DNA from: Nitrososphaerota archaeon
Lineage (GTDB): Archaea > Thermoproteota > EX4484-205 > JAAOZP01
Direction of reading: 5' to 3'
NCBI GenBank assembly: GCA_011605725.1
Contig: JAAOZP010000005.1
Coordinates: 1 to 59,647 of the forward strand
Length of the DNA stretch: 59,647 nucleotides
A program made the translations under genes and the position numbers. Below, one piece after another: positions 56 to 55,196 of this stretch. The notes under the pieces were generated by a model. The model did no database searches, was not told where the DNA came from, and was given only the letters and a program-made list of their open reading frames with translations. The stretch's first letter is position 1. Each line of letters opens with the position of its first letter.

Positions 56-69
56 TTAGCGCGCGCTAA
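56..69. repeat. Dispersed short palindrome, perfect 14-bp copy TTAGCGCGCGCTAA
   Basis: Perfect palindrome read directly; member of a family recurring across the window. Confidence 0.8.
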
Positions 70-153
70 TCATGATATTGGCATACGTAGTCGCCAAGTT
101 TACACGCTTGCCTTTCCCCCAGTGACCTTCGTTGTTGGAGGAAGCACATTGCC

Positions 154-163
154 TAGCGCGCTA
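154..163. repeat. Dispersed short palindrome TAGCGCGCTA
   Basis: 10-bp perfect palindrome, intergenic, just upstream of an IS-end-like remnant. Confidence 0.7.
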
Positions 164-184
164 AGAGTAACGGGAAGAAAAGCT

Positions 185-219
185 GGAGGCCCAGCCTTTA
201 GGCGTGGAGAGGGCGCCAC
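185..219 (+). mobile_element. Degenerate IS200/IS605 (TnpB-type) right-end remnant
   Basis: GGAGGCCCAGCCTTTAGGCGTGGAGAGGGCGCCAC resembles the archaeal IS605/IS1341 right-end hairpin GAAGCCCCGCCCTTTAGGGCGGGGAGGAGGTCAC; no transposase nearby. Confidence 0.4.
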
Positions 220-303
220 GGGTCATAAGGTGCTTTTTGATACCGTTGCTATTTCTGGATATTCCGAAGATGGCTCCGGTACGCTAGTGCACTCATAGGG
301 CTC

Positions 304-336
304 GAGGCTTCCAGGTCAGAGTAGCGGAGTAGCTCA
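304..336 (+). mobile_element. Possible second degenerate IS200/IS605 right end
   Basis: GAGGCTTCC...GCGGAGTAGCTCA resembles the GAAGCTCC...GCGGAGTAGTTCAC end type; highly decayed. Confidence 0.25.
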
Positions 337-435
337 GAAGCTTATAAAATGTTCTGAATCTCTCCAAATAGGTCTAACACACCGATTTCCTAATTTACCC
401 AAAAAGCGCTGATGGAAAGCTTAAATATAGAAAAA

Positions 436-525
436 ATGTCTATCAGGATAAGTAAAGAGTTAAAAGAAGAAATCGAAAAGCTAAATATAGACACACGCGC
501 GCCCTTAGGGAAGGAAGAGTTATAA
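436..525 (+). pseudogene. Truncated RHH/VapB-type antitoxin N-terminus
   Basis: MSIRISKELKEEIEKLNID matches the start of archaeal ribbon-helix-helix antitoxins (SIR..KELKE.....I[ND]W). Similarity stops at ACACGCGCGC (493-502). TATA-like TTAAATA at 421. Confidence 0.5.
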
Positions 526-534
526 ATCTTCGTC

Positions 535-1077
535 GTGATGGTTAATGATATTGGTGATAGCAAGGTCATGAAGAGCATTGAGGATATTGCAGAGCCCTAT
601 AGAGGTCTTGTTACAAGGCTACTTAAAGTACTTTTATCCATGTTCGGAGATAGATTAGTATCGTTTATTGTTTATGGGAGTGTTGCTAGAGGAGAGGCGA
701 AGCGAAGCAGCGACCTTGACTTATTGATGGTGGTTGAGGGCTTACCCGGATCCAGATTTGACAGAAATAAAATTTTCGATGCAATTGAGGACTCCTTGGC
801 TAAAGACCTGGAGGATCTGCATGCCTTGGGATACTATGCGGCGCTATCTCCCATTATAAAAACACCTGAGGAGGCTCAAAAAATTCTGCCTTTATACCTT
901 GACATGGTTGAGGACGCTGTTATAGTTTATGATAAGAATGAGTTTTTCGAATCAATACTCATAAAGCTTTCAAAGAAGCTGAAGGAGCTTGGCGCTGAAA
1001 GGGTGTGGATTGGTAATAAGTGGTATTGGAGGCTGAAAAAAGACTTGAAGCCAGGCGAGGAGATCATCATTGAATAA
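535..1077 (+). CDS. Minimal nucleotidyltransferase (MNT), partner of an MNT-HEPN toxin-antitoxin pair
   Basis: YGSVARGEAKRSSDLDL = GS-x10-DxD Pol-beta motif; overlaps the HEPN gene; start may be 538 or 568. Confidence 0.9.
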   Translation: MMVNDIGDSKVMKSIEDIAEPYRGLVTRLLKVLLSMFGDRLVSFIVYGSVARGEAKRSSDLDLLMVVEGLPGSRFDRNKIFDAIEDSLAKDLEDLHALGYYAALSPIIKTPEEAQKILPLYLDMVEDAVIVYDKNEFFESILIKLSKKLKELGAERVWIGNKWYWRLKKDLKPGEEIIIE

Positions 1078-1492
1078 TATTGAACTTGCTAGATCGAATA
1101 TCAAGCAGGCTGAAGAGAGGCTGAAGCATGCGAGGGAAGCCTTGGAGTCAGGCAACTACCCCTATGTGATAAGGCAGTGCCAAGAAGCTGTTGAACTAGC
1201 TCTGAAGGCAGCACTTAGACTAGTTGGAATAGAGCCGCCTAAATGGCACGATGTGGGACCAATACTGAGAAGAGAGAAAAACGTTTTTCCTAAATGGTTT
1301 CAAGATCATACGGATGAGTTGGCCTCCGTATCCAGGATTCTAAGAAGGGAACGAGAACCGGCGCTTTACGGTGATGAGGAAACAGGTATGCCTCCAGAAG
1401 AACTATATGCCAGGTCTGATGCTGAGAAAGCTTTGAAGGATTCAGAGGAAGTATTAACGTTAGTTCTTAAGCTCCTTTCTTCGAGCCTATGA
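1070..1492 (+). CDS. HEPN domain protein
   Basis: Helical; CQEAVELALKAAL, KWHDV and REPALYGD motifs of archaeal HEPN proteins; coupled to MNT. Confidence 0.9.
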   Translation: MNNIELARSNIKQAEERLKHAREALESGNYPYVIRQCQEAVELALKAALRLVGIEPPKWHDVGPILRREKNVFPKWFQDHTDELASVSRILRREREPALYGDEETGMPPEELYARSDAEKALKDSEEVLTLVLKLLSSSL

Positions 1493-1554
1493 AAACATTG
1501 AGGACATAGAAATGTCTAAATACTATTAGCGCGTGCGACGAAAATTGTTGAAAA

Positions 1555-1839
1555 ATGCTTAATAAAAGCTTCTTGTTTTTAAATAGTATCATGGAAAAGA
1601 CGATGGAAGAGATGGAGGAAGAGCTGAAAGGGAAAACTATATCCAGAGCTAGAGCCATGATGACGATATTCAAGCTTAGAGAAGAGTATGGGGAGCAGTA
1701 TCTTCAAAGGAAGCGTGGAAGGGTGAGGAGTGAGGAGGAGCTCCGTAGGCTTGCCGAAGCATGCAGGCTGAACTGGAAATTTATGGAGGAGGTGGGTATG
1801 ATACGACGCAGCAACGGGGAAATCCTAGTGAGGATATAG
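1555..1839 (+). CDS. Small hypothetical protein, possible partner of downstream nucleotidyltransferase
   Basis: Charged helical ORF with coding-like codon use, overlapping the next gene; likely start 1591. Confidence 0.55.
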   Translation: MLNKSFLFLNSIMEKTMEEMEEELKGKTISRARAMMTIFKLREEYGEQYLQRKRGRVRSEEELRRLAEACRLNWKFMEEVGMIRRSNGEILVRI

Positions 1840-3654: not shown

Positions 3655-3713
3655 TATGCAAATGTGGCTAGTCACTCCTCCGTTTCTACGACGAGGCTTA
3701 GCAAGATGCAATA

Positions 3714-3726: not shown

Positions 3727-3764
3727 TCAGCGCGCACTATACTCCGCTGACGAAGCTAAAGTCC

Positions 3765-8588: not shown

Positions 8589-8666
8589 TTTTCATGTTGA
8601 ATTGGGGTCGATTTCGGTATGAATTAAGTTAAAAGTTTATTAATCAAATTAAAAATTGACCAATAG
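8589..8666 (+). promoter_or_regulatory. Promoter/operator block, copy 1 of a 78-bp inverted duplication (upstream of cobW-like gene)
   Basis: 72/78 identical to the reverse complement of 11861-11938 (58/59 over 8589-8647). Contains BRE/TATA AAAAGTTTATTAA and two TTC-N5-GAA boxes. Confidence 0.9.
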
Positions 8667-8669
8667 CGC

Positions 8670-9779
8670 GTGCTGAGTAAAATGAAGAGGAGAATAGCTG
8701 GCATAGGAGGATTCCTCGGTTCTGGGAAAACAACGCTGATAATAGAATTAGGAAAGAAACTTGCTTCCGAAGGAAAAAAGGTTGCCATAATAACCAATGA
8801 TCAAGGGGAAAATCTTGTGGACACCAATTTGGTAAGGGATTACGGATTCGCAGTCACTGAAGTAGTTGGTGGATGTTTTTGCTGCAGATTTCCAGATTTT
8901 ATAACTCATATTCACGAAATGGTGCATGAGGCCAATCCTGATGTGATCTTGGCTGAACCCGTGGGGAGCTGCACGGACCTTCTAGCAACAGTTTACGCTC
9001 CGCTCAGAAAGTATTATGAGGGAGAATTTAATCTAGCCCCCTTCACAGTTCTCATAGATGCTTCTAGCCTCCTTCTAGATCTAGAGGAAAAACGTGTCTT
9101 TACTTCAAACACTCCGACGGGAGATCTTTATTCGTGGCAAGTAAAGGAAGGAGACATACTGGCGATTAACAAGACGGATTTGGTGCCTAAAAAGGAGGTG
9201 CCGAAAATTGAGTCGTTTTTGAAGGAAATTAACCCTACAGCCGATATCATCCAAATCTCAGCTAAAACCGGCCATAACTTGGACAGGCTTCTTAAGATGC
9301 TGATAGAAGGGGAGCATAAGCCTCGCTCCACAATCACAGAAGAAATTGATTATAACACATATGCTTTGGCTGAGGCTGAGCTGGGATGGTTTAATGGTGT
9401 GTTTAGGATTAACTCTGACAAACCGTTAAAGATAGATGACTTGATGAAGGAGCTGCTGACGGAGATAAACAGGCGGGTGGAGAAGAGTAAAGGAGTAATC
9501 GTCCACGCGAAGACTCGCTTTTCAACTAAGGAAGGTTGGGCCAAGGCTTCTCTTGTAATATCAGATGTTGATATTACAGGTGAAGTCCCGCCCCCATCAA
9601 AAGACATAGACGTAATCCTCAACATCAGGGCAGCTATAGACCCGGTGGCTCTGTCGAACATCGTGAAAAATTCGCTTGGAGCCGTAACTTCTAGACACAA
9701 TGCTAGGTATGCGGATTGGGTTGCCACAAGCTTTAGGCCAGGATACCCAAAGCCATACTATCGCCTCGTACATACTTAG
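8670..9779 (+). CDS. COG0523/CobW-family (G3E) metallochaperone GTPase
   Basis: GGFLGSGKTT, GGCFCC (CxCC), AEPVGSC, NKTD; CobW_C-like C-terminus; likely start 8682. Confidence 0.9.
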   Translation: MLSKMKRRIAGIGGFLGSGKTTLIIELGKKLASEGKKVAIITNDQGENLVDTNLVRDYGFAVTEVVGGCFCCRFPDFITHIHEMVHEANPDVILAEPVGSCTDLLATVYAPLRKYYEGEFNLAPFTVLIDASSLLLDLEEKRVFTSNTPTGDLYSWQVKEGDILAINKTDLVPKKEVPKIESFLKEINPTADIIQISAKTGHNLDRLLKMLIEGEHKPRSTITEEIDYNTYALAEAELGWFNGVFRINSDKPLKIDDLMKELLTEINRRVEKSKGVIVHAKTRFSTKEGWAKASLVISDVDITGEVPPPSKDIDVILNIRAAIDPVALSNIVKNSLGAVTSRHNARYADWVATSFRPGYPKPYYRLVHT

Positions 9780-9839
9780 AGATGGAGGGAGTTTCCGAAT
9801 GATATGTCCTATAGCGATAGCGTGCGCTCAGGGAGGGCC

Positions 9840-9933: not shown

Positions 9934-11739
9934 CTACATAGACCTTTTATGTTGCTGAGAAGTATAGTCAGCGCTGCCTAGCATAGCGCGCGCTATCCTA
10001 AACCATTTCATTAATGCATCTGCCAACACTGCTCCTAGGAGCATAATAAAAGATACTATTATGAATGTCTGTACTAGAGCGGGAATGGTTCCCGATGGTA
10101 AAAGCTCATTTGTTATCTTCAAAAAAGCCCCATGGATTGTCGCTGAAGAAAATACCAGTACAGGCCAGAACGTTACCCAACCATAAATTGGTTTGAGGTT
10201 CTTGAGAATATATGAGGTTGCAACGATTAGGGCAATACAGGCCATCAACTGGTTGCACATTCCAAACATGGGCCAAATGACGCCTATTGTACCAGTGTAC
10301 AATAAGTAAGCCCATAGGAACGCCATGACAATGGTTAGGGATATTGTGCTTATCCACCATTTGCGTGGCTTTGCGGAGGTGATGCCCATGGCATCTTGCA
10401 CAAAGTATCTAGCCATCCTGGTGCCATGGTCCATGATTGGCATTGTGAATAGAGCTATGTAGATGATACTGAATTGGTACCAAATAGCTAATGCAGTCTC
10501 TCCTCCAAATAGACTGGAAAGAAGTTTCGCGGCGCTTATACTTAATGATGTTACTCCACCAACCCTTCCTTGGAGGTTCATGCCAACCATTTCTGAAAGC
10601 CTTGGCAGCTCCACAGGTACCATTTTCAATGTTGCATAGACATTCGGATTGACATTAATTGCAAAATAATCACCTGGGAAAAGTATACATGCCAAGCAGA
10701 GAGCCACAACTGCAATCGCGCTTTCAGTTAGCCAAGCACCATAAGCTACAGTTCTAATGTCCATTTCACGAGATACCAATCTTGGAGATACACCGGAGCA
10801 GGAAAGGCTGTGCCATCCAGATATTGCCCCGCAAGTAATGATGATGAAAAGGAACGGCCAAAGAGGCCCAGGAATTACAGGCCCACTCGAGACTGCATAC
10901 TCGGTTACGGGCGGCATCTTCAATTCGGGATGCGCAACAAATATCGCGACCACAAGCAAAGCAATTACAGATACTTTGATGAGCCCGCTCAAGTGATCTC
11001 TTGGGCCCAGTAATACATGAACTGGAACAATCGAGGCTATGGACGCATATAGCGCTATTAAGAGTATCAGCTGTTCTTTCCCAAGGTCAAAGGTACTTAG
11101 CAAGCCTATTTCGTTAAGTTTCGGTGCGATGAGTAAAAATAGAATAAGTTGAAAGAGCCCTATTATCGCCCCTTCCATAAACCTTCCCTTTCTAATCCAA
11201 CGTGCATACGCATAAATGAATAGCGAGATTGGGATCGTTGTCGCAACAGAAAATGTCGCCCAGACATTGTGCATCAACGCTGCTATGAGACCTGTGCCCA
11301 TGCCAGCTATGGCGACTATTACCATGAAGTATGTTGCAAGCGTCACAGCTATCCAGCTTATCTTCCCGACTTCCATCTTTGCTATCTGTCCTATCGACTT
11401 TCCATCGTGTCTGATAGAAAGGAACATGACCATGAAATCATGTACTCCCCCAGCAAGACATGTAGCAGTCAATATCCAAAGGATACACGGAAGCCAACCG
11501 TACTGGGCAGCTAAAGTAGGTCCTAACAGGACTCCGGAACCAGCTATTGTCGCGTAATGGTAGAAAAAGACAACCCATCTATTTGTCGGCACGTAATCCT
11601 TCCCATCATTTAGCCTTATGGCTGGAGTTGTTTTTCCATCATCAAGCTTAGCAACCTTCAAGGCTAGAAACTTTGAATAGAACCTGAAGCCTAAAGCGAA
11701 TACGAAAATGGTAGATGCCATCATGATCGCTGAATTCAA
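9934..11739 (-). CDS. cstA: Carbon starvation protein A (CstA) family transporter
   Basis: TPAIRLNDGKDYVPTN, HYATIAGSGVLLGP, AGGVHDF, ITCGAISGWHSL, IWPMFGMCNQL; SD GGAGGA before the TTG start. Confidence 0.95.
   Translation of the reverse strand: MNSAIMMASTIFVFALGFRFYSKFLALKVAKLDDGKTTPAIRLNDGKDYVPTNRWVVFFYHYATIAGSGVLLGPTLAAQYGWLPCILWILTATCLAGGVHDFMVMFLSIRHDGKSIGQIAKMEVGKISWIAVTLATYFMVIVAIAGMGTGLIAALMHNVWATFSVATTIPISLFIYAYARWIRKGRFMEGAIIGLFQLILFLLIAPKLNEIGLLSTFDLGKEQLILLIALYASIASIVPVHVLLGPRDHLSGLIKVSVIALLVVAIFVAHPELKMPPVTEYAVSSGPVIPGPLWPFLFIIITCGAISGWHSLSCSGVSPRLVSREMDIRTVAYGAWLTESAIAVVALCLACILFPGDYFAINVNPNVYATLKMVPVELPRLSEMVGMNLQGRVGGVTSLSISAAKLLSSLFGGETALAIWYQFSIIYIALFTMPIMDHGTRMARYFVQDAMGITSAKPRKWWISTISLTIVMAFLWAYLLYTGTIGVIWPMFGMCNQLMACIALIVATSYILKNLKPIYGWVTFWPVLVFSSATIHGAFLKITNELLPSGTIPALVQTFIIVSFIMLLGAVLADALMKWFRIARAMLGSADYTSQQHKRSM
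9983..9996. repeat. Dispersed palindrome ATAGCGCGCGCTAT in the cstA 3' tail
   Basis: 14-bp perfect palindrome; the only full-length copy noticed inside a long CDS. Confidence 0.7.
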
Positions 11740-11758
11740 TCAGCCAATCCTCCACATG

Positions 11759-11851
11759 CTAGCGCGCACTCCGCCTTTCCTTCAATATGTCCTCAACTTC
11801 AGGGTCTATTTTCATGCTTTCCCAGCCTTCTGAATAATGCGTGCGCTCCAT
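11759..11851 (-). CDS. 30-aa ORF (MERTHYSEGWESMKIDPEVEDILKERRSAR) between the duplicated promoter and cstA; leader peptide or gene remnant
   Basis: First ATG after the TATA of promoter copy 2; stop codon lies inside palindrome variant AGTGCGCGCTAG. Confidence 0.3.
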   Translation of the reverse strand: MERTHYSEGWESMKIDPEVEDILKERRSAR

Positions 11852-11860: not shown

Positions 11861-11938
11861 CAATTAGTTAATTTTTTACTTGATTAATAAACTTTTAACT
11901 TAATTCATACCGAAATCGACCCAAATTCAACATGAAAA
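11861..11938 (-). promoter_or_regulatory. Promoter/operator block, copy 2 of the 78-bp inverted duplication (upstream of cstA)
   Basis: Reverse complement matches 8589-8666 at 72/78. Confidence 0.9.
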
Positions 11939-12145
11939 AACTCGCGCTTATTTGTCCCCAACTTCCGTAAAGCAGAACTGAGCGCATGTGCCCATGTTTA
12001 TACTTTTTTTATAATATTGCATGTAGAGCAATATCGGACTAGCATAGCTCAGCCGTTCTGGTGTGATTCCCTAAGCTTTTATTTGGGTATGATTTGGTTG
12101 AAATTTGGGAAATTCTTTTTTAGCTTCAAATTTCAAGAATATGAC

Positions 12146-16772: not shown

Positions 16773-16782
16773 TAGCGCGCTA
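16773..16782. repeat. Dispersed palindrome TAGCGCGCTA
   Basis: Perfect 10-mer, intergenic. Confidence 0.7.
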
Positions 16783-32600: not shown

Positions 32601-32880
32601 CATTGTAGTGAAACACATGGGCATTGTTAACCTTATCGTATAGGTCGTGCAGTCTTGCCCCAAGCGATGGTATTACCCTCATCTTTAGGTATTCGTTTTC
32701 AACCACTATACTATCGTAGGTAACCGGTTCAGGCTCATCGCTAAAATTGTTTAAACCAGTATAGGGGTAATATTGGAAAAACCTTGGTAAAGGATCTTCG
32801 TCAAGCACTCTATAGGTCTGTATCTCTACCTTCTCGTCATACCATTTGCTGGTCATGGATTTATAAACACATATTAACAC
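29698..32880 (-). CDS. DUF5107 domain and TPR-repeat protein (paralogue 1)
   Basis: VVENEYLKMRVIPSLGAR, FHYNE.I.P, GVEFN, YFWTN, PGKKRFTWG, PYIELQSG; TPR array; YPRNLGVG. Confidence 0.88.
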   Translation of the reverse strand: MLICVYKSMTSKWYDEKVEIQTYRVLDEDPLPRFFQYYPYTGLNNFSDEPEPVTYDSIVVENEYLKMRVIPSLGARLHDLYDKVNNAHVFHYNEIIRPANIALRGAWIANGVEFNSLDRGHHTPDNFSPVDWKVKELEDGGVTVYIGNINFITNMYYLVGLTLRPGRHFLETSVKIFNNDVLRTKYYFWTNTAEPVTEGSRVFIPGKHLTEDTFPVTRDGVDVSWYKNCKFAVDAFIIDSEEDFFGYYDYNMHYGVVQYANHFKIPGKKRFTWGTSEDGLFWAPILSDKGVPYIELQSGKYRTQSIVGFVDPHYFDEWEEWWYPVPKIGGISYANKDAVVYVDIKPENGKFKVTVGIHVTKVFPNSVIRIHLGGQVVEEKLNLAPTDPFVKEFESKDKKVKVEAIDEKGVEIIAWDCRDYKTKIDESVYYRPSELVVNAKKTAEELWIDGELEERMGNPLLAELKYKQALKVDEGFSKALCSLATIYYRRGMYAEAVKLLEKALKRDPDYSEAHYYLGLCYLKLGDEFNSEIELWKARTKFFSQSSYWISVVKIRNGEYEKAEEVLREVVERDSKDFKCTFLLAAVLRKQKKVKEALDIVKKALEAFPLYYPLLSELMLCSEEGKPEFERIVLSEEQKLLEAATEYISINFYEDAKKVLEIGVSKGLNGPMVHYYLGFVCERLQQTEEMKKHYQAGDLRNPDRVFPHRLIEEEILRSVIKNTGSPKARYYLGNLLFQLGRFEEAIGEWEKAEESGFKYSILHRNLGFAYNRLYRDYEKALKEYEKAIDIDQDNYRLYLEYYDVCRWTKLVEKAVKTLEEARTRIKKDSILAALSSAYIDTGKNDEAIKILEENTFTPAEGYYGYWEMFVEAHVRRGLERVNRRRYEEALKDFLNALTYPRNLGVGAPYAPHRHEAKQRYWAGQCYLLMGEKKKARKMWKSILTQKFFNIDEAYYKGLALKMLGRKREALELFKDMLKEAMKREEEIASLKREIPEEYFNALNYDKKLMEARCRKIIAYLGLGMNREAVVELRKVLRLAGKEVFLRKMAGQCPVYVSIRII

Positions 32881-33615: not shown

Positions 33616-33911
33616 CCCATTAGTTGCAGGAGCGACGGTTTAAAAAGACGTACAAGCTTCTTAGCGCGCGAGTTTCATTACTTTTGTCATTTCTGCATAA
33701 GTATTTTTTAAGTCATAACAGATTTCCGTTCTCTTCAATGGAATAACAACCATGTTTTCTCTATCCGACTTCTCGTTATTACCTGGTAAGAGAATTTTAC
33801 TGAAGGAAAGCTATTGAAGCTTGCGCAATGCGTAGGCCATGCATGCAAATCATGCTCCTTAGAGACACAGCTCTGCAGAAGTTCCTATAAACTCTTCATA
33901 AAGCCAGGGTT

Positions 33912-36900
33912 TTAGTACGTGTCAATTCTTATTGAAACATAAACCGGCCATGATTTAGACATTCTCTCCACGAAGATCCCACTACTAGTTATCCTCAAGA
34001 CCTTCCTAAGCTCCTTCATCGCTTCCCTATTCCTTCTCAGTCCAAGATAGGCGATTATCTTCCTGCAGCGTGCCTCCACAAGCTTTCTATCGTAATTCAA
34101 AGCGTTAAAGTACTCCTCTGAAATTTTTCTCTTTATGCTGATTATCCTCCCCTCTTTTTCCAAAGCCTCCTTCAACGCACCCTTAAACAATTTTAAAGCC
34201 TCTTTTTTCCTTCCAAGCATTCTTAGGGCAAGGCCCTTGTAGTAAACCTCGTCAATATTAAAGAACTTCTGAATGAGGATGCTTCTCCACATCTCCCTCG
34301 CCTTCTTCTTCTCCCCCATCAGGAAATAGCATTGGCCAGCCCAGTACCTCTGTTTAGCCTCATGCCTATGCGGAGCATAGGGTGCTCCGACACCCAGGTT
34401 CTTCGGATAAGTCAGAGCCTTAAGAAAGCACTTCAGAGCTTCTTCATACTTCTCATTCTTCAAATTCTCTATTCCTCTTCTCACATAAGCTTCCACAAAC
34501 AGCTCCCAGTAGCCATAGTATCCTTCAGCAGGAGTGAAAGTGTTCTCCTCGAGTATTTTAAGCGCCTCATCACACTTCCCGTCGTTAACGTATGCTACGG
34601 ATAACGCTGCCAACACTGACTCCTTCTTAACCCTACCGCTTATCTTCTCTAGAGCCTCAATTGCTTTCTCAAAAAGACGAGCCATAGAGCAAACCTCGTA
34701 ATACTCGAGGTAAAGCCTATAGTTCAGCGGATCCATGGCGATCGCTTCCTCATACTCTTTCATAGCCCTCTCATAGTCTCTGTACAGCTTGTAATAAGCA
34801 AATCCAAGGTTCCTATGGAGGACTGGGTGTTTCAACCCATTCTGCTCTGCAATCCTCCATTCTTTGATCGCCTCGTCAAATCTCCCGAAGTGAAATAGAA
34901 GATTTCCTAAATAGTATCTTGCTTTGGGACTCGCTGTAATGGTGATAACACTCCTGAGTATTTCCTCCTCTTCTATCCTGTAAGGAAAGACGTAATCCGG
35001 GTTCTTTGAATCGCCAATCCGATAATGCTTCTTCATTTTATCTACCTGTTGAAGCTTTCCGTAAACAAATCCCAGATAGTAATGAACCATGGGTCCATCA
35101 AGGCCTTTTAAAACCCCTGCATTCAGAATCCTCTCCGCATCATCGTATAGGTTAGCTCTTATGTATTCAACAGCTACTTCCAAGAGCTTATGCTCCCTAG
35201 CTAGGACAACCCTTTCAAACTCTGGGCTACCCTCTTTCTCTGAGCACAGCATCAACTCTGACAGCAAGGGGTAGTATAGTGGAAAAACCTCTAGGGCCCT
35301 GTGAACGGTTCGCAGGGCCTCCTCAATCTTTCCTTGTTTCCTCAAAGCAGCGGCAAGCAGGAACAGACACCTGAAATCCATAGTATCTTTCTCTGCAACC
35401 TCTCGAAGAACTTCTTCGGCTTTTCCATACTCTTTATTTCTCATTTTGATGATGGATATCCCGTAGGATGATGGTGAGAAGAATCTCATGGACCTCCTGG
35501 CCTCCCAGAACTCTATCTCGGAGCTAAACTCATCTCCCAGCTTGAGATGACATAGACCAAGATAATAGTAGATCCCGTAATCTAGGTTTCTCTTCAAGGC
35601 CTCTTCGAGAAGTTTAGTAGCCTCACCATACTTTCCCTTCCGGTAATAAAGAATGGCTAAGGAGCACAATGCTTTCGAGAAATTACTATCCACTTTTAAT
35701 GCTTGCTTATACTTCAATTCTGCAAGCAATGTATTGCCCATTCTTTCCTCCAGTTCTCCATCAACCCAAAGCTCTTCAGCAGTCTTCTGTTTCTCAGCGT
35801 CGATGCTAAATTCACTTGGACGACGGTATACTGATTCGTCGATCCTTGTTCTATAGTCCCTACAATCCCAAGCTATGATCTCATTACTGTTTTCGTCTAT
35901 GACTTCAACCTTAACCCTCTTATCCTTAGACCTAAGCTCCTTAACGAACGGGTTTCCAGGCGTTAAATCGAATTCCTCTTCAACAACTTCCGCGCCTAAA
36001 TGAATTTTAATTTTAGCATTGGGAAAGTCCTTCGTCACATAAACCCCGATCATTATTCTGAAGGCTTTGTCTCCAGGCTTGGCATCAACATAAATCACAG
36101 CATCCTTGTTAGCATAGGAAATGCCATTTATCTTCGCGATTGGATACCACCATTCCTCCCATTCATCGAAGTAATGAGGATCAACAAAGCCAACTATGCT
36201 CTGCGTCCTATACTTGCCGGATTGAAGCTCTATGTAGGGCATGCCTCTATCCGAAAGTATCGGTGCCCAGAGCAAGCCGTACTCGCTGGTTCCCCACGTG
36301 AACCTCTTCTTCCCGGGCACTTTGAAATGGTTAGCATGCTGTACTAATCCATAATTCGTGTTGTAATCATAATACCCGAAGAAATCCTCCTCACAATCTA
36401 TTATGAAGGCGTCGACACCAAACATGCAATTCTTATACCAGCTGACATCGAGGCCCTCTCTAGTCACTGGGAAAGTGTCATCTACTGTATGCTTGCCGGG
36501 AATGAAGACTCTGCTCCCTTCGGTGACCGGCACAGCTGCATTCGTCCAGAAATAGTATTTGGCCCTCAGCGGGTCGTTGTTAAAAGTTTTGATGGTGGTT
36601 TCTAGAAAGGCCCTTCCAGGCCTCAGGGTTAAACCAACCAAATAGTATATGTTGTTAAAGAGAATAACATTTCCTATATAGACAGTTATGCTACCGTCCT
36701 CCCATTCCTTAACCTTCCAGTCCACCGGGGAGAAGTTATCCGGAGTATGTTCTGGCCTATCCAGACAGTTAAACTCAATTCCATCAGATGTCCACGCTTC
36801 TCTAAGGCCTATAACAGGTCTTAACACCTCATTATAGTGAAACACGTGAGCATTATTAATCTTATCGTAAAGATCGTGAACCCTCGCCCCCAGGGAAGGT

Positions 36901-37085
36901 ATTATCCTCATCTTTAAATACTCGTTTTCAACCACTATAGTTTCATACACAACCGGTTCAGGTTTATCGTTGAAATTGTTTAAACCGACGTATGGATAAT
37001 ACCGGAAGAACTTTGGAAGCGGGTCTTCATCAAGGATTCTATAAACTTGTAGTTCTGTTTTTTCTGTATGCCATTTGCTGTTCAT
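33912..37085 (-). CDS. DUF5107 domain and TPR-repeat protein (paralogue 2)
   Basis: Collinear full-length paralogue of 29698..32880 with the same motifs. Confidence 0.88.
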   Translation of the reverse strand: MNSKWHTEKTELQVYRILDEDPLPKFFRYYPYVGLNNFNDKPEPVVYETIVVENEYLKMRIIPSLGARVHDLYDKINNAHVFHYNEVLRPVIGLREAWTSDGIEFNCLDRPEHTPDNFSPVDWKVKEWEDGSITVYIGNVILFNNIYYLVGLTLRPGRAFLETTIKTFNNDPLRAKYYFWTNAAVPVTEGSRVFIPGKHTVDDTFPVTREGLDVSWYKNCMFGVDAFIIDCEEDFFGYYDYNTNYGLVQHANHFKVPGKKRFTWGTSEYGLLWAPILSDRGMPYIELQSGKYRTQSIVGFVDPHYFDEWEEWWYPIAKINGISYANKDAVIYVDAKPGDKAFRIMIGVYVTKDFPNAKIKIHLGAEVVEEEFDLTPGNPFVKELRSKDKRVKVEVIDENSNEIIAWDCRDYRTRIDESVYRRPSEFSIDAEKQKTAEELWVDGELEERMGNTLLAELKYKQALKVDSNFSKALCSLAILYYRKGKYGEATKLLEEALKRNLDYGIYYYLGLCHLKLGDEFSSEIEFWEARRSMRFFSPSSYGISIIKMRNKEYGKAEEVLREVAEKDTMDFRCLFLLAAALRKQGKIEEALRTVHRALEVFPLYYPLLSELMLCSEKEGSPEFERVVLAREHKLLEVAVEYIRANLYDDAERILNAGVLKGLDGPMVHYYLGFVYGKLQQVDKMKKHYRIGDSKNPDYVFPYRIEEEEILRSVITITASPKARYYLGNLLFHFGRFDEAIKEWRIAEQNGLKHPVLHRNLGFAYYKLYRDYERAMKEYEEAIAMDPLNYRLYLEYYEVCSMARLFEKAIEALEKISGRVKKESVLAALSVAYVNDGKCDEALKILEENTFTPAEGYYGYWELFVEAYVRRGIENLKNEKYEEALKCFLKALTYPKNLGVGAPYAPHRHEAKQRYWAGQCYFLMGEKKKAREMWRSILIQKFFNIDEVYYKGLALRMLGRKKEALKLFKGALKEALEKEGRIISIKRKISEEYFNALNYDRKLVEARCRKIIAYLGLRRNREAMKELRKVLRITSSGIFVERMSKSWPVYVSIRIDTY

Positions 37086-37160
37086 AATGTTAAAAAAACA
37101 TTAGCTATATAAAAACTTTATAGTTGCAAATAGATGCACGCTGCGCGCTTAGACTATTTA

Positions 37161-38459
37161 CTAAACTGTCAGCCTTTTTATAAGCGAAATGCTCTCTTCA
37201 ATCAGGATTTCTGCCGAGCCCTTCGCAAGCCTGTTCCACCATGTTGGAGTAACCTCGTACCCGCCCTGTTCATACGCCTCTGAGGTGGCTATGTACCCGC
37301 AATACCCATTCGCATAGGAGACGATGAGGGTTGGGCTCAGTGGAGAGCTCTTCTTGACGCGTATGCCGACTTCAACAAGGGGCTCACCCGGTATTCCAAC
37401 CAGTACCCCCCCACCTATTCGCAAGGCCTGCAACGTTGTTTCAACCGTCTTCTCCAACGGCATTTCACGAATCATTCTCAGGTTTTTCTCATAATAATTT
37501 AGAATAGCCTTGTTCCTCATTATTGTTTCAGCATCCGCGTTTCTAGCCTCAAGCTGAGAAACATGTTTCTCCTGGTTTTCAAACAGCTTGCGGGCTGTCT
37601 CCATGGAGGGCTCCGCCAGCGGTAGCGTAACTTTTTTCCCTGCAGTCTTTACAACCGGCTCCTCCTCTGTCTTGATGAACCTCATAGCGTTAAGGGCAGC
37701 ATACGCCACTATTCTTCCAACAGCTTCAACATCCTCAAACGTGCCTGGGCAAGCATACCCTAACGAGGTAAGGGGATTAATGTCTCCATCCGCCCCGTTC
37801 GTGAAAAGAGCCACATGGTTAGCGTTTAGCCTCGACTCGATTATTCTCGAAACTACGCCAGGATAGTCTGCTGAAATAAGGTAGTTCGTATCTCCCAGCA
37901 CAACACCGTGGCACGCGTAATTCACAAGTGAGGCAATCGGGCTGCCGGATTCCTCTGTGACGAGTAGAACGCTAACATCCGGGTCAACAGGCCCATTGAA
38001 GAGCCTCCTGTTGAAGCCTACGATGGCTCTTCCAACACCCCAGCCGAGCTTCGCTCTTCTCGCCATTGCCGCCGAGTTTAAGCCTGCCGTCACCATTTTC
38101 TCGCGGAGAGTGCTCAGATAGTTTTCTAAGCCCGTTCCGGAAATATCTGCAGAAATGTCCGGGGGGAGCGATGGGCCAGAGTGGGTATGGGTTGCGGAGA
38201 TCATTATGGAGCTTTCCACAAGCCCAAGCCTACTGGCCAACTCCTTCTTAACTTCAACCGTCAGGGAGTCAGGGATGTTAAGCAGGTCGTTAGCGATAAG
38301 TAGTAGAGCGTTTCCCCCGCGCTCCAAGTATAGTGTTCTCGTGTAAAGCCTATCATGCACTCCCTCAGAACCCTTGTATCTCGCTGCGAAACCACCCATC
38401 TTGACGCCGACGGGCGGAGTAATATCCTCCTTCGACGCTCCAGCTCGCATGCAAACCAT
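37161..38459 (-). CDS. Neutral/alkaline ceramidase-family amidohydrolase
   Basis: DITPP, GVHDRLYTR, SATHTHSGP, NYACHG, ISADYPG, GADGDINP, PGEP, YANGY.GY, YEQGGYE. Confidence 0.88.
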   Translation of the reverse strand: MVCMRAGASKEDITPPVGVKMGGFAARYKGSEGVHDRLYTRTLYLERGGNALLLIANDLLNIPDSLTVEVKKELASRLGLVESSIMISATHTHSGPSLPPDISADISGTGLENYLSTLREKMVTAGLNSAAMARRAKLGWGVGRAIVGFNRRLFNGPVDPDVSVLLVTEESGSPIASLVNYACHGVVLGDTNYLISADYPGVVSRIIESRLNANHVALFTNGADGDINPLTSLGYACPGTFEDVEAVGRIVAYAALNAMRFIKTEEEPVVKTAGKKVTLPLAEPSMETARKLFENQEKHVSQLEARNADAETIMRNKAILNYYEKNLRMIREMPLEKTVETTLQALRIGGGVLVGIPGEPLVEVGIRVKKSSPLSPTLIVSYANGYCGYIATSEAYEQGGYEVTPTWWNRLAKGSAEILIEESISLIKRLTV

Positions 38460-42381: not shown

Positions 42382-43158
42382 ATGATAAGAGTCCTCTACG
42401 TTGGGGATTCCGGGACGATGGCGCTAGTATACACGGGTTCACCATTCTGGGTGGAGCAGAAGAATCTTGAAGTCAGAAACTTCGGCCTGCCGCTGCTCCG
42501 CGCCCTTGAAGGAGACACCGGTATTGAAGTAACATACATGCCCACCTGGGAAGCCTACCGCAGTTTTCCGAAGAATCTTGAAGACCTGTTAAAATACGAT
42601 GTTTTAATACTGAGCGACGTTGAGTACGACTGCATAATATACTATCCTGAGTTCTACACTCCCAGCAAGTATGGTGAGCACATAGTTATGCCGAACAGGG
42701 TTAAAAACATCAGGGAGTTTGTACGGCTGGGCAGAGGGCTGGCGATGCTCGGCGGATGGCAGAGCTTCGCCGGGAAATATGGGAACGCGCTTTGGCAGGG
42801 CACGCCTGTTGAGGAGGCTCTGCCCGTGAAAATGCTGGATAGGGATGACAGGGTTGAGCACCCGGAGGGAGCGCAGATAAAAGCGTTAAAAGAAGACCAT
42901 CCCGTCATGAGGAACATAGACTGGAGCACTGCGCCCCCGCTCTTAGGCTATAACAAGGTTCTGCTTAAAGACGGGTCTGAGCTTCTCGCCACGGTGGGGG
43001 AGGGAGACGTGCTAATCGCTACCTGCAAGTTCGGCGAGGGGAGAAGCTTCGTCTTCACCTCGGACCCAGCACCTCACTGGGGTATAAACTTCATGAAATG
43101 GCACTACTACGAAGTCTTCTGGAGGCAAGCCATTAAATGGTTGGCTGGAAAAATCTAG
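42382..43158 (+). CDS. Glutamine-amidotransferase-like protein (DUF1355/GATase1-like)
   Basis: YDVLILSDV, GLAMLGGWQSFAG, TPVEEALPV, DDRVEHPEG, LLGYN, FTSDPAPHWG. Confidence 0.88.
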   Translation: MIRVLYVGDSGTMALVYTGSPFWVEQKNLEVRNFGLPLLRALEGDTGIEVTYMPTWEAYRSFPKNLEDLLKYDVLILSDVEYDCIIYYPEFYTPSKYGEHIVMPNRVKNIREFVRLGRGLAMLGGWQSFAGKYGNALWQGTPVEEALPVKMLDRDDRVEHPEGAQIKALKEDHPVMRNIDWSTAPPLLGYNKVLLKDGSELLATVGEGDVLIATCKFGEGRSFVFTSDPAPHWGINFMKWHYYEVFWRQAIKWLAGKI

Positions 43159-43211
43159 TCCAATTATGAGCATTGGCTAGAAGCCTTTAATAACTTTTGC
43201 ATTTTTATCAA

Positions 43212-43223
43212 TTAGCGCGCGCT
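43212..43223. repeat. Dispersed palindrome TTAGCGCGCGCT
   Basis: Intergenic copy overlapping the first codon of a PIN-like gene fragment. Confidence 0.7.
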
Positions 43224-43289: not shown

Positions 43290-43409
43290 CCTTGATTAAA
43301 GCTAAGCGCGTTCTCAGCTACCATGAAGAATAAGCTGCTAATAAATGATCGATGAGCAAAGTGTTGTTAGAAGAAAATGTTTATATAGTCATGGTATAAC
43401 TTTCACCGT

Positions 43410-43697
43410 ATGGTGGAAACTGTGGAAGAAACATTGAACGTAGACAAGCAGGGCAGGATTGTTCTTCCCGCTCGTATCCGGAAAGCTATAGGAATGGAAA
43501 GAGGAGGAAAACTGCTAATTAGGCTTGACGGCTCAAGGATAATACTTGAACCTTTCCCTAAAGACCTGAAAAAGAGTGTTGAAGAATGGGTTAATTTAGT
43601 ACGAAACATGGAAGTTAATGTTTCTGAAGAAACTTCTGAGGAAAGCTGGAAGTGGATGAGCCGTGAATATGCTGAAAGGAAACTTGGCCTATCCTGA
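43410..43697 (+). CDS. AbrB/MazE/SpoVT-family antitoxin
   Basis: VDKQGRIVLPARIRKAIG...IILEP. Confidence 0.9.
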   Translation: MVETVEETLNVDKQGRIVLPARIRKAIGMERGGKLLIRLDGSRIILEPFPKDLKKSVEEWVNLVRNMEVNVSEETSEESWKWMSREYAERKLGLS

Positions 43698-44157
43698 AGG
43701 AATATTAGATGTGAGCATAATAGTCGTCATATGCTTCGATAATCCCCTTAAAGAGCATGGTATAAATTTCATTCATGATGTACTTATTCAGAAAAAACAT
43801 GTCGCTCTTCCGGTTTCGTCTATAATAGGGGCATACCACATAGCTACTAGGTACCTAAAAGTATCAAAAATCTCTGCAAAAAAAGTTCTAGTAGGTCTTT
43901 TGGTTACAAGATCTCCTGCACTGTATCCGTCAATAGCACCTGAACTAGCCATTGATGCTCTCGAGTACGCAACATACTATAATGTTGAGTCTTGGGATGG
44001 TTACTTGATATCTTTAGCAAGAAGCCTAGGAACTTCAATAATATATTCATTAGATAAAGAGCTTGCAAAAGTGAAGGAAGTATCGGTAGTTAACCCATTT
44101 CCAGAGGAAGCAGTTAAACAGTATCATGAATTCATAAAAAAAGTATTAAAGTCTTAG
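43663..44157 (+). CDS. vapC: PIN-domain (VapC-like) toxin
   Basis: ILDVSII, SWDGYL, IYSLDKEL, VVNPF; overlaps the antitoxin gene. Confidence 0.85.
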   Translation: MNMLKGNLAYPEGILDVSIIVVICFDNPLKEHGINFIHDVLIQKKHVALPVSSIIGAYHIATRYLKVSKISAKKVLVGLLVTRSPALYPSIAPELAIDALEYATYYNVESWDGYLISLARSLGTSIIYSLDKELAKVKEVSVVNPFPEEAVKQYHEFIKKVLKS

Positions 44158-44175: not shown

Positions 44176-44197
44176 TAAGCGCGTAAGCGCGCGCTAA
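44176..44197. repeat. Tandem palindrome copies TAAGCGCG-TAAGCGCGCGCTAA
   Basis: Directly downstream of the TA module. Confidence 0.75.
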
Positions 44198-44405
44198 ACA
44201 AATCCAAGCATGCCTGTGAACGTTAAGCAAGCACTTGCTTTGAGAGCTTGGCTTCTGTCCCAGCCAACTTGGACTGAGCATTGTCTAAATCTCTCTGCAA
44301 GTCCTCCATCTGCCTTTGCAGCATGGGCACGGTGTTCCTACAACCTTTTAATTCTTCCTTCGGGTGGACAAGACTTATAAAGAACCCGTTGTACCTAAAA
44401 ACGGA

Positions 44406-44629
44406 ATGTCTGAAATAACTTATGAGAGCCCAGCGATAACGATGAAAGACTACGAAAAGTATAGGGGCAAACATGTTGTAATTTCAAGGATGAAATAATA
44501 TCTGAAGGCTCGAGCTCGGTCGAGGCTGTGGCGAAAGCCTTGGAAAAACATCCTGAGCTCAAAACTGAAGACCTGGAGATAACATACATACCTTTTGAGG
44601 AAACATTAATCCTTGAAGTTTACATTTAA
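44406..44629 (+). pseudogene. Frameshifted DUF5678-family gene
   Basis: MSEITYESPAITMKDYEKYRGKHVVI, then -1 frame at about 44481-44485 continuing KDEIISEGSSSVEAVAKALEKHP...ITYIPFEETLIL; KY.GK.V.....I...G....A...A is the DUF5678 pattern. Confidence 0.7.
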
Positions 44630-44687
44630 GTATAGAAGAGAGGAAGCCAAGAAGAGGATCATCTATAGGCCAATTGTAGCGCGCACT
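44613..44687 (+). pseudogene. 5' remnant of a clan AA aspartyl-protease-like gene (usual DUF5678 partner)
   Basis: MKFTFKYR...IIYRPIV matches the N-terminus of these proteases; breaks at TAGCGCGCACT (44677) before any DTG motif. Confidence 0.5.
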
Positions 44688-44725
44688 TCCGCCTGGGAAG
44701 CCCTCTATGCGCAATATGTTGTTGC

Positions 44726-44737
44726 TAGCGTGCGCTA
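44726..44737. repeat. Dispersed palindrome variant TAGCGTGCGCTA
   Basis: One transition from the consensus; clustered with copies at 44677, 44824 and 44835. Confidence 0.7.
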
Positions 44738-44998
44738 TCATATCCTAAAAACCTTTCTTTTAACAGAACCCTTATCAACATTTATACTCACGCGCTGCTA
44801 TAAATTAGTGGCATTTAATTTTTTGGCGCGTGCTTTAGCGCGCGGCTCCCTCTGCAAGGGATGTAGAAACCGGCTTTCAATCAGGAGCAAAAAGGAGTAA
44901 TGATGCTTTCTCGGTGCACAGTAGACTTATGTAGTGGTATGAGCAAAAATGGAGAAACAACCCTTCCAGTGTTCAGCGAGCATTAGGGACGTTAATCC

Positions 44999-49741: not shown

Positions 49742-49790
49742 TGGCTTTATTGCCCTTAGTTGCTAGCCTAATCATCTTTAATAGTCTCCC

Positions 49791-52909: not shown

Positions 52910-52938
52910 TTTTTAAACCACCTTAAAAAGGGCCGGAA

Positions 52939-52953
52939 AATAACTGTGTTATA
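52939..52953. promoter_or_regulatory. Operator TATAAC-N3-GTTATA (AATAAC-TGT-GTTATA) at the DUF39 operon promoter
   Basis: One mismatch to a palindrome found five times in this block; overlaps the TATA region about 30 nt from ATG. Confidence 0.75.
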
Positions 52954-52990
52954 AGCTTTTCTACAGTTATGAATGATTTATGTTATTTCG

Positions 52991-53005
52991 ATTACCCATA
53001 GTAAT
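52991..53005. promoter_or_regulatory. Second palindrome ATTAC-N5-GTAAT
   Basis: ATTACCCATAGTAAT, 52 bp from the first operator; matched by 58597-58611. Confidence 0.5.
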
Positions 53006-53119
53006 AATCTATTAGTCGCCTTTTATGGTTATCGCCGAGACTTTTCAGAAGAACAACTACTTACAAGCATCTATATGTTTTTAAAAGCATGACGCATGTC
53101 TAAACGGCTATGAAAACAC

Positions 53120-53695
53120 TCAAATATATTTTAAACTTAATTCCTCTGCTATCTCATGATATTTTTCATGAACTCCATGGCCCATCCTTTCTTCTTCAAT
53201 CTTCTCAAAGCTTTCTAACAACTTCCCAAAATCTTCTTCATTAAGCACTTTTCTTCCAATTGGGTAAAGCACGTTATCCTCTTTAGAAATATGAGCTTCA
53301 AGCAACTCGACATAGTATGATGCGTTCTCAGAAAAAAGCATGTACCCATTCTTATCACCTTTTTCTATGTTTTCTATCGCCCGCGACATCTTTTTAATTA
53401 GATTTCGTCCCTGCTCATGCTCCTGAAGCATAACTCCTATAGGGCCTCCTGATCGAGAAACTCCACGGCTTTCTAAAACTGGGAACAAGATATCCTCCTC
53501 TTTGCCATGGTGACATTTATCTGCAAACATTCTCAAGAATTCTAACGCTTTCTTAAGCTCTTCGACCGGAGGATTGACACCCGCCTTTATATTCTCTGAT
53601 GCTTTCTTCAAAACCTTTAGAACTTTCTCAATTACCCTGTGCTCCCCCTCTAGTACTTTTAATGGGTCGTTCATCATTCTGTTTTCAGCATACAT
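53120..53695 (-). CDS. Hemerythrin-like (HHE cation-binding) protein
   Basis: EH..I, DKCHHGKEEDILFP, GPIGVMLQEHEQGR, HISKEDNVLYP. Confidence 0.93.
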   Translation of the reverse strand: MYAENRMMNDPLKVLEGEHRVIEKVLKVLKKASENIKAGVNPPVEELKKALEFLRMFADKCHHGKEEDILFPVLESRGVSRSGGPIGVMLQEHEQGRNLIKKMSRAIENIEKGDKNGYMLFSENASYYVELLEAHISKEDNVLYPIGRKVLNEEDFGKLLESFEKIEEERMGHGVHEKYHEIAEELSLKYI

Positions 53696-53849
53696 TCATG
53701 CATATAAGATTTCTGGTGATGCAATTCTTTTATAAGTGTGCCTTATCTGGAATGTCCAGGGTATTCTTGTTTTTTCGGGAAACATTTAAATTTGAGACAT
53801 TTCAACTTCAATGGATACGTTGAAATCTTATCCTTACTCTAAAGGTTTT

Positions 53850-53864
53850 TATAACACTGTTATA
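53850..53864. promoter_or_regulatory. Operator TATAAC-ACT-GTTATA (perfect) in a divergent promoter region
   Basis: Perfect palindromic arms between the hemerythrin and cysteine-synthase-like genes. Confidence 0.78.
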
Positions 53865-53992
53865 TAAAGGCTTTATAGAATGAATATGGAAAGGCACTTA
53901 GAAGTCTCGAAGTGTCGACTTACCATCGTCAAAAGATATTTGATACGAGCGCCAAACTTGGAATTACACGTTTTTGGGGGGAGGGGTAAAGG

Positions 53993-55174
53993 TTGAGTAA
54001 GGTTTTCAGCGCAATTAGTCTTCAAATGTTCAACAGATTCGCCGAAAACCTAGTGCAATATAGGGGGTTAAAACCATATCCCATCGAGGAAATAAAGGGG
54101 TTTAGTGTTGAAAAAGATCTACACGTGTTCATAAAGCGGGAACACGATAATATTGAAGGTACTGACCCTATCAGATCAATAAAGAGAAAGCCGGCAAGCA
54201 TAATGGGTTTATTCGTGGAAGAAGTTAACCCATATTCAAAAGTTTGGATCTCCGCTTCATCGGGTAACTTTGTTGAGGAACTTGGTATTTTGGCGAATGA
54301 AGCAGGCAAAGATCTTTTTGCTGTTGTTCCACCGCGAACACCTTCCCAGAAGATTGAAACCTTGAGGAATTTAGGAATAAACATTGTTAAGGTTTCTGAG
54401 GAAGAATACGACCTGTGCCCAAGGGAGTTCACAGTGTTCTGGGTTAGGGCTCTTGTGAACAGGCTTAATAGCACGGATGTGCTAAACATAGACCAGTACA
54501 ACAGCATTCTGAATCCTCTTTCTCACGTTTTACTGACTGCTAAAGAAATAGATGAGAAGTTTGAAAACGATTTAACTCACATTTTCGTTCCATTGGGAAG
54601 TACAGGAACTTTTGCAGGCATATGCGAGTATTTCTCAAGGTTCCGCCCAAAGGTCAAGATAATTGGTGTTCAACCAACTATGGAGCATCATATACCAGGC
54701 GTTCATTACGTCATGGGCGATTGCAAGTGGAGTCCGGAAATCTTCGGATTGCCTGACAAGAGAAGCTTGAAGATTTTAACAATAGACGACAAATCTGCGT
54801 ATCTAGCGCTTTCAGAGCTCGAAGTTAAATATGGTGTTCACGGAGGGCCTTCAAGCGGGATGGTGTTCGCCGCCCTAAAGAAGGAATTGAACACTATGGA
54901 AGATGGTAGTAATATACTTGTATTGTCAGCTGATAGTTCGTGGGATTACGTGGAATGGAACAGGGCTATTTTAACGAAACTTAAAAATGAATCTGTATTC
55001 TCCGAAGAGGATGATGTATTGGTAGAAAAATACATGGGGCTTCTACAAAGGAGAGAAGATGCGTCCAGAAGAGTATTGAAAGTAAAAAACACCTATAAGC
55101 CTCCTAAAAAAGGGCAACTTTATAGCCTAGAGGAATTCGAGGATCTTTTGCCGAACTTGTTAAATAAAACTTAG
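53993..55174 (+). CDS. Fold-type II PLP enzyme, divergent cysteine synthase/CBS family
   Basis: DPIRSIKRKPA (PLP Lys), ASSGNF, DQYNS..N...H, LGSTGT, IIGVQP, GGPSSG. Confidence 0.82.
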   Translation: MSKVFSAISLQMFNRFAENLVQYRGLKPYPIEEIKGFSVEKDLHVFIKREHDNIEGTDPIRSIKRKPASIMGLFVEEVNPYSKVWISASSGNFVEELGILANEAGKDLFAVVPPRTPSQKIETLRNLGINIVKVSEEEYDLCPREFTVFWVRALVNRLNSTDVLNIDQYNSILNPLSHVLLTAKEIDEKFENDLTHIFVPLGSTGTFAGICEYFSRFRPKVKIIGVQPTMEHHIPGVHYVMGDCKWSPEIFGLPDKRSLKILTIDDKSAYLALSELEVKYGVHGGPSSGMVFAALKKELNTMEDGSNILVLSADSSWDYVEWNRAILTKLKNESVFSEEDDVLVEKYMGLLQRREDASRRVLKVKNTYKPPKKGQLYSLEEFEDLLPNLLNKT

Positions 55175-55196
55175 CACGCTACGAATAATAAGGTAT

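Follow-up and report, generated by a model that had tools for sequence, protein, structure and literature searches.

The stretch of DNA considered here, called the window, is the whole of contig C2 (59,647 nucleotides) of a 2.23-Mb, 20-contig genome, labelled G000, from a hot-spring archaeon of the Brockarchaeota. A short palindrome of the general form A(GC)nT recurs between its genes and is probably a scar added where two DNA ends were joined. The exact 10-mer, AGCGCGCGCT, is referred to below as the perfect copy or perfect scar. Copies of the palindrome bracket an MNT-HEPN gene pair (526-1489), cobW (8670-9779), a cstA-like gene (9934-11739), and an AbrB-PIN pair (43389-44154), as a first-pass annotation of the window had pointed out. 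It had also placed copies at one end of each of two duplicated promoter-like stretches, and the copies at 8665 and 11939 do adjoin 76-nt repeats. Its remnant of a ribbon-helix-helix (RHH) gene at 493 is borne out by reading of the sequence. Its IS605 end at 3728 is not: the neighbours there are BNR sialidase-like and CBM9 genes, and no Y1 transposase (PF01797) was found in the genome.

About 20 copies had been listed by eye at first. The total, including n=3 and degenerate copies, is about 22, and the positions were right to within 1-3 nt. Exact 10-mers start at 58, 9985, 43214, and 44186, and copies with one transition at 3729, 8665, 9819, 11761, 44678, and 44727. Forms with n=3 lie at 154 and 16773, with a degenerate one at 55172, and weaker remnants at 496, 1528, 11939, 33663, 37140, 43305, 44176, 44825, and 44837. 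When one mismatch at most is allowed, the window holds 10 copies of the 10-mer, compared with 0.90 +/- 0.95 (maximum 4) in shuffled sequence. The 12-mer TA(GC)4TA occurs twice (57-68 and 9984-9995) and in none of 100 shuffles.

The window was compared with metagenome contigs from strains 99.3-99.8% identical to it (L061-L065 and L069-L072). Its features are the following; a strand is given where one is assigned, and all other rows are unstranded.

57..68, exact 12-mer TA(GC)4TA, also present in strain contig L069
154..163, n=3 form TA(GC)3TA
436..505, plus strand, about 20 codons of an RHH-like gene start, as read from the sequence, ended by a degenerate (CG)n tract at 493-502
1528..1537, degenerate copy directly after the MNT-HEPN pair
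3729..3738, one-transition copy between the BNR and CBM9 genes; identical variant in the strains
8665..8674, one-transition copy at the end of the 76-nt promoter-like stretch 8589-8664, which is duplicated; L069 has a perfect copy here and differs by 2 nt in length
9819..9828, one-transition copy behind cobW; another single change there in the strains
9985..9994, exact copy at junction F; all 10 nt absent from the older, radical-SAM allele, and homology to L069-L072 stops at 9984
9985..11783, minus strand, 1799-bp segment with the cstA-like gene, replacing 1151 bp of L069-L072 (body of a radical-SAM gene)
11761..11783, junction G, one-transition copy (11761-11770) and 13 extra nt; strain homology is back at 11784
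11939..11948, degenerate copy adjoining the second 76-nt stretch (11863-11938), which is inverted, at its other end
16773..16782, n=3 form TA(GC)3TA
33663..33672, degenerate copy between a 153-aa gene and the second DUF5107/TPR paralogue
37138..37152, degenerate double tract, with the 37167/8 breakpoint against L062/L063 17 nt away
43214..43223, exact copy before the AbrB-PIN pair; homology to five other species of the genus (43149-43205) ends here
43305..43314, degenerate copy upstream of AbrB
44176..44195, junction A, short degenerate tract and exact 10-mer; L061/L062/L065 go on from 44179 with other DNA and without the motif
44180..44736, 557-bp mosaic of filler, 482-bp piece, filler, 39-bp piece, and filler, replacing about 4 kb with four genes in L061/L065
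44678..44687, junction B, one-transition copy; in strain L064 the sequence continues past 44678 and has no motif
44727..44736, junction C, one-transition copy; L061/L062/L065 homology is back at 44737
44825..44846, two adjoining degenerate copies
55172..55181, degenerate n=3 form in a region colinear in all strains

The abundance of the palindrome extends to the whole genome. A genome-wide count against a Markov null had been proposed as a check, and it showed the perfect copy to be the most frequent 10-mer of G000, with 88 loci against 0.9-1.4 expected under Markov orders 0-3. Tracts of the A(GC)nT series with n = 3, 4, 5, and 6 occupy 59, 88, 20, and 2 loci, respectively, and tracts in the other register, (CG)n, are rare. 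Thus n is mostly 4, and a T in front and an A behind are common. Information in the flanks is confined to position -1, where T is found in 56% of the copies, and nothing is conserved beyond 12 nt. With no common flanks beyond this T, the motif is not a mobile repeat; a miniature inverted-repeat transposable element or any longer repeat was ruled out on the same ground. The next most over-represented 10-mers of G000 are overlapping repeat words with about 90 copies, all outside the window. The end of these words (ATTGAAAG) resembles archaeal CRISPR repeats.

The near-exclusively intergenic position noted at first in the window holds across the genome. By a crude gene caller, which assigns 88% of G000 to coding sequence, 74 of the 88 copies are intergenic, three lie on a gene edge, and 11 count as coding. 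Seven of these 11 fall within the first or last 3% of an open reading frame (ORF) and the other four in short, low-scoring ORFs, so that no copy is found in the interior of a confident gene. All four orientations of the neighbouring genes are struck proportionately, so the motif does not belong to promoters or to terminators. The variants with one mismatch are dominated by single CpG transitions (26, 23, 12, and 7 loci), with transversions near background, and at the copy at 9819 the strains carry differing single changes. This is the pattern of a perfect founder decaying through CpG transitions.

The origin of the motif is revealed by comparison with the strains, from which two large replacements separate the window. 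In the first, positions 9985-11783, with the cstA-like gene, stand in place of 1151 bp found in four strain contigs (L069-L072). The replaced DNA is the body of a radical-SAM gene, which is intact at 350 aa in the older allele. The first 68 nt of this gene are left in the window, and the window allele is therefore the derived one. At junction F (9984/5), a complete 10-mer lies between the common flank and the new DNA, and not one of its bases is present in the older allele. In the second replacement, positions 44180-44736 take the place of about 4 kb with four genes. At junction C (44736/7), the 10-mer is followed at once by sequence from the initial 45 nt of a BNR gene, of which L061 has the intact version of 409 aa. 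A third strain, L064, has the 482-bp piece and reads through where the window carries its second filler.

Alleles with intact genes and without the motif were found for junctions A (44179/80), C, F, and G (11783/4), where the window allele shows the motif together with DNA that is foreign or has been relocated. Whether breakpoints in related strains fall on the motif was a further check put forward in the first-pass annotation. Measured to the closest edge of a motif, the five breakpoints lie 0, 13, 6, 0, and 0 nt away; for a random intergenic point of the window, the probability of lying within 1 nt of a motif is 0.015, and that of lying within 14 nt is 0.093. The motif-poor 13.7 kb at the right end (45.9-59.6 kb, with one degenerate n=3 remnant only) is colinear in four strains, and the small indels elsewhere in the window are ordinary homopolymer changes. 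The same junctions were found again in contigs from eight metagenome samples, making a library or assembly artefact unlikely. At 43214, the spacers of the other species are only 81-84% identical, too diverged to display a clean insertion. A blastx search of flanking sequence from the window against the ORFs of G000 itself gave no truncated paralogues in the window. The proposed link of the motif to gain, loss, and replacement of accessory genes is correct.

One region of strain variation involves a tandem pair of DUF5107/TPR paralogues of 1057-1060 aa (29698-32880 and 33912-37085), for which 69-84% identity was found over four repeat blocks. The 153-aa gene between them is inverted in strains L062 and L063.

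Paralogues within the genome provide a second set of joints. In a self-BLAST of G000, 23 of 1270 paralogue-match ends abut the motif, compared with a mean of 4.7 and a maximum of 12 in shifted controls, and in all but one of the cases shown the partner copy continues without the motif. One such case comes from two matching contigs, in which C10:1-141 and C10:149-243 correspond to C11:1-141 and C11:1061-1155. Since C11 and a third copy, in C9, are continuous, C10 has lost 919 bp, and an alternating GC run of 7 nt closes the gap. The motif flanks a 67-bp copy (C6:25761-25827) on each side, and at C12:18273 a radA copy begins mid-gene directly behind it. Non-parental nucleotides stand exactly at the joint in junctions F, C, and B and in the C10/C11 deletion.

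The motif is accordingly new sequence at joints, absent from the older allele, and it links unrelated DNA, among it truncated genes and pieces as short as 39-67 bp. As the older alleles have intact genes and no motif at the breakpoints, it is filler written at the joints and not a pre-existing recombination site. The first-pass annotation had suggested a crossover, cleavage, or repair-scar site; the scar stands, and the pre-existing crossover or cassette site does not. It had also observed that no recombinase is visible in the window, which is right, and none is needed for a scar. On this comparative evidence, drawn from the sequences of strains, paralogues, and relatives, we assign a probability of about 0.78 to A(GC)nT being a junction scar, that is, a constant self-complementary stretch added de novo at the joining of two DNA ends. 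Both outer bases, A and T, were gained at junctions F and C and hence belong to the written sequence; at other joints, the flank's own A or AG doubles as the start of the tract.

Such scars could arise in a few steps. One break, or two breaks with or without a stray fragment between them, would leave free ends. Each 3' end would then gain a short tail, consisting of (T)A and then alternating GC, and any two tails could pair through their GC runs. Gap filling and sealing would give the order left flank, A(GC)nT, right flank, with the pairing register, or slippage, setting n. The scar would afterwards decay by C-to-T changes at its CpGs. We infer both this tailing-and-annealing chemistry and an enzyme behind it. 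Eight G:C pairs would make the most stable short duplex, which would suit end joining in a hot spring. The tail might be copied from a template, either an RNA encoded elsewhere or the palindrome itself, or it might be untemplated. Two observations weigh against a simple scar at every joint. Junction G carries 13 extra nt beyond the motif copy, and the breakpoint at 37168 sits 17 nt from the tract, so not all joints are clean.

Once written in this manner, scars might become preferred sites of new breaks, being fragile or recognised by a nuclease, and so act as reusable shuffling points. This extension is rather unlikely. It would account for the double or neighbouring tracts at 44176-44195 and 44825-44846, for the several scars within 0.6 kb at 44.2-44.8 kb, for a copied piece that bears part of its source tract (C9:66219), and for the same variant followed by the same six nucleotides at 11761 and 44678. 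Clustering is also expected, however, if variable regions tolerate many independent events, and no event was seen in which an old scar formed the breakpoint in the older allele. The repeated stretches (11761-11783 and 44678-44700) share one one-transition variant followed by CCGCCT, and a longer version of them was found at a third place, G000:C19:125253. They may have arisen by copying of a scar with adjacent DNA, or the unit that is written may be longer.

A pre-existing site-specific recombination or cassette site of the attC or dif type, with crossover between two copies, has very little probability. The bracketing of whole modules (MNT-HEPN, AbrB-PIN, cobW, and cstA) and the clustering of copies in variable regions are what such a site would produce. 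The four junctions whose older alleles have no motif speak against it, as do genes cut at arbitrary points (the mid-gene start of radA and the gene starts of 45-68 nt left behind), a deletion with filler alone at its joint, "cassettes" of only 39 and 67 bp, and conservation that ends at 12 nt. Integrons recombine pre-existing attC sites, which are long and structured, and carry whole promoterless ORFs as cassettes. Compared with this, the element is only 10-12 nt long, its older alleles have no site, and the inserts include truncated genes, no search for an integron integrase having been made. The idea that cstA forms a cassette with a fixed boundary was also considered and rejected, because the copy near the end of the C3 paralogue sits at a different place.

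Footprints left by the excision of a cut-and-paste transposon, made of a TA target duplication and terminal inverted-repeat bases, are even less probable. Footprints of Tc1/mariner and IS630 elements consist of TA, a few terminal bases from each inverted repeat, and TA. The division of the motif into TA-GCGC and GCGC-TA has such a shape, and the T at -1 in over half of the copies agrees with it. Against this, the older alleles have ordinary genes and no element at these places, the tract joins unrelated DNA and seals deletions, and the self-BLAST gave no repeat family with such ends, the family termini not having been inspected. Taken together, the strain and paralogue joints leave neither a pre-existing crossover or cassette site nor a transposon footprint standing as the main explanation.

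Least probable of all, and hardly to be entertained, is that selection or methylation-linked biased repair keeps the motif as a HIP1-like or protein-binding palindrome, serving as a nucleoid, operator, or Z-DNA signal: the hyper-abundance, lineage specificity, and intergenic position of a perfect palindrome would fit, but copies decay and vary between near-identical strains, coincide exactly with structural breakpoints, prefer neither promoter-side nor terminator-side spacers, and have no orthologous copy across species at 43214, and a search for the suggested GCGC-specific methyltransferase found no C5 type (PF00145), with N4 and N6 types not searched.

Several known systems resemble the scars in part. 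HIP1 and the repetitive extragenic palindromes and bacterial interspersed mosaic elements (REP/BIME) are likewise short, highly iterated, lineage-specific palindromes. HIP1 also occurs inside genes and is maintained, with a cognate cytosine methyltransferase, and REPs are longer, imperfect palindromes (20-40 nt), have sequence in common, and go with RAYT transposases. In contrast to HIP1, no copy here lies in the interior of a confident gene and there is no maintenance; in contrast to REP/BIME, no Y1 transposase was found in G000 and there is no information outside 12 nt.

Closer relatives are found in repair. The filler of end joining by LigD-Pol or Pol theta, and the N/P nucleotides of V(D)J joints, share with the scars the non-parental nucleotides at the joint, the deletions, and the captured fragments (PMC5042397, PMC3898472). 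Known filler differs between joints or is copied from nearby DNA, whereas here a single self-complementary sequence is found at 88 loci and across a clade. Ku, required for comparison with Ku-LigD end joining, was not found in G000; neither were a reverse transcriptase (RVT_1) or PolX. Break healing by telomerase, with its interstitial telomeric repeats, offers the likeness of a constant short repeat added by a dedicated polymerase and left inside chromosomes. Bacterial DRT10 makes protein-primed defence cDNA and not genomic joints (bioRxiv 10.1101/2025.10.16.682844). Repeat synthesis of the telomerase or DRT10 kind takes a reverse transcriptase and an RNA with the complement of the repeat. 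No reverse transcriptase was found in G000 and no conserved template-bearing RNA at six loci of the primase-like gene described below, and the product here pairs two ends and does not cap one.

Archaeal PriSL is a further comparison. It has terminal transferase, strand-annealing, and extension activities and carries out microhomology-mediated end joining (MMEJ) of double-strand breaks in a hyperthermophile, leaving small indels (PMC12019639, PMC3333859). It is the replicative primase, and no inserted sequence of a constant kind is spoken of in the abstracts; the present candidate is an additional paralogue without PriL, beside radA. Full-text searches for the 10-mer, or for Brockarchaeota together with palindromes, returned nothing relevant. 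None of the known end-joining fillers, telomerase or DRT10, or PriSL MMEJ uses one constant self-pairing linker genome-wide. The phenomenon appears to be new, its mechanism being a proposal.

Among relatives, the scars are limited to one lineage. All genomes with 6-118 perfect copies fall in one well-supported clade that comprises nine species of the genus. Within this clade, G010 has three perfect copies only, and the seven other species of the genus have 0-3 (three in G013 and none in the others). In G000, a PriS-like gene additional to the replicative primase (C7:379023-379793) overlaps the end of radA. Together, dinB, radA, and this PriL-less gene lie in one orientation at G000:C7:376638-379793 (locus L023:1639-4797). 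The pairing of radA with this archaeo-eukaryotic primase (AEP)-type gene is kept in all six genomes that have it. The gene is full-length in six of the nine clade genomes, a dead copy is present in one more (G008), and it was not found outside the clade. It is the only one of four AEP genes to be limited to the clade; the other two non-replicative AEPs are genus-wide.

By its sequence, the product is predicted to belong to the AEP/PriS family. It retains the DxD motif, the His/Cys knuckle, and SGxRGFH, and residues D89/D91, S139-H145, and D197 are invariant in seven PriS-like sequences. The match to PF01896 scores 31.5 bits against a cut-off of 26.8, and a profile of the PriS-like alignment matches PriS structures with E = 4e-10. 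Fragments of the gene are scattered in G000, G002, G006, G007, G008, and G016, and the fragment in G000 (C12) begins directly behind a GC scar.

Two genomes extend the comparison. G010, which is without the PriS-like gene, has 78 copies with one mismatch, compared with 24 in the control, beside its three perfect ones, and these look like a fossil record. The Bathyarchaeia genome G031 (SPRUCE_177) has a 43%-identical homologue along with several gene fragments, and W(GC)4W occurs there at 117 loci, mostly with T..A flanks, against 33 for its own reversed-pattern control. In three Bathyarchaeota genomes that have no such homologue, these loci number 7, 2, and 0.

Further observations were made on these distant relatives. 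The G031 homologue (loci L089 and L111) does not follow radA, and its neighbour is, from reading of the translation, a possible tyrosine-recombinase-like gene. Locus L111 has six (GC)4-5 tracts in 12 kb, one of them within a few nucleotides of the start of a gene fragment. The Bathyarchaeota genome G032 (MFD02416.bin.1.399) contains seven exact Brockarchaeota 10-mers and none of the control pattern, with only weak matches to the profile of the extra primase (E about 1e-8). G023, from the same order and another family, has a 30%-identical relative of the PriS-like gene, and a 400-kb sample of it shows a weaker excess of tracts in the other register, (CG)4 (15 loci, 1.9 expected), some A..T flanked and clustered in C2:190-200 kb.

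The PriS-like primase-polymerase behind radA is the best candidate for the writer, an unproven one, and the identification is on balance less likely than not. The fuller proposal is doubtful to a slightly greater degree. It supposes a dedicated "linker-writing" end joining, in which the PriL-less PriS-like enzyme, possibly with RadA, would add a fixed self-complementary GC tail to any end, templated by a small RNA or by the palindromic oligonucleotide itself. Several points weigh against the enzyme. The association amounts to essentially one gain in the clade and one distant lineage besides, so an equal correlation would be expected for many other genes specific to the clade. The copy in G008 is dead (frameshift, stops, and a changed DxD), yet the genome has 33 perfect scars. 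G009 has 16 perfect scars and the gene was not found in it, the genome being 89% complete. Nor do genomes with the gene separate cleanly from those without it when perfect copies are set against degenerate ones as a ratio.

A conserved RNA template adjoining the PriS-like gene was considered and is unsupported at the six loci. They have no (GC)n-bearing element in common, their post-stop regions are not conserved, and neither an RNAalifold consensus structure nor an Rfam match was obtained. The tract 100 nt downstream of the gene in G006 is itself a scar, because homology to L085 ends there. A hairpin was observed in the last codons of the gene (L024:2215-2245 and the same place in L025-L029 and L085). 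Its pairing is kept despite changes on both sides (CCGGC/GCCGG in two species and CCTCCC/GGGAGG in the others), and its loop differs among genomes that have the same motif. The stretch between the stop and TAAAAAC likewise reads ACGC, AGGC, GGGC, or GCGC among genomes with the same motif.

How broken ends are joined without Ku in most archaea is an open question, and these scars bear on it. Natural genomes hold a record of hundreds of repair events with a readable signature, some of them recent enough to differ between 99.5%-identical strains. The scar therefore provides a direct marker for mapping structural change and gene capture in uncultured hot-spring archaea, and the PriS-like gene a candidate enzyme open to testing. 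If the proposed chemistry is true, a polymerase would provide any DNA with a defined sticky end at high temperature, a property that may find use as a tool. Should linker writing by the PriS-like enzyme prove correct, any two ends could pair stably at high temperature, and the enzyme would correspond in function to telomerase or terminal deoxynucleotidyl transferase, in an archaeal form based on a primase. Such a system would be a driving force of gene capture and deletion in Brockarchaeota and also, where the flanking bases are others, in some Bathyarchaeia.

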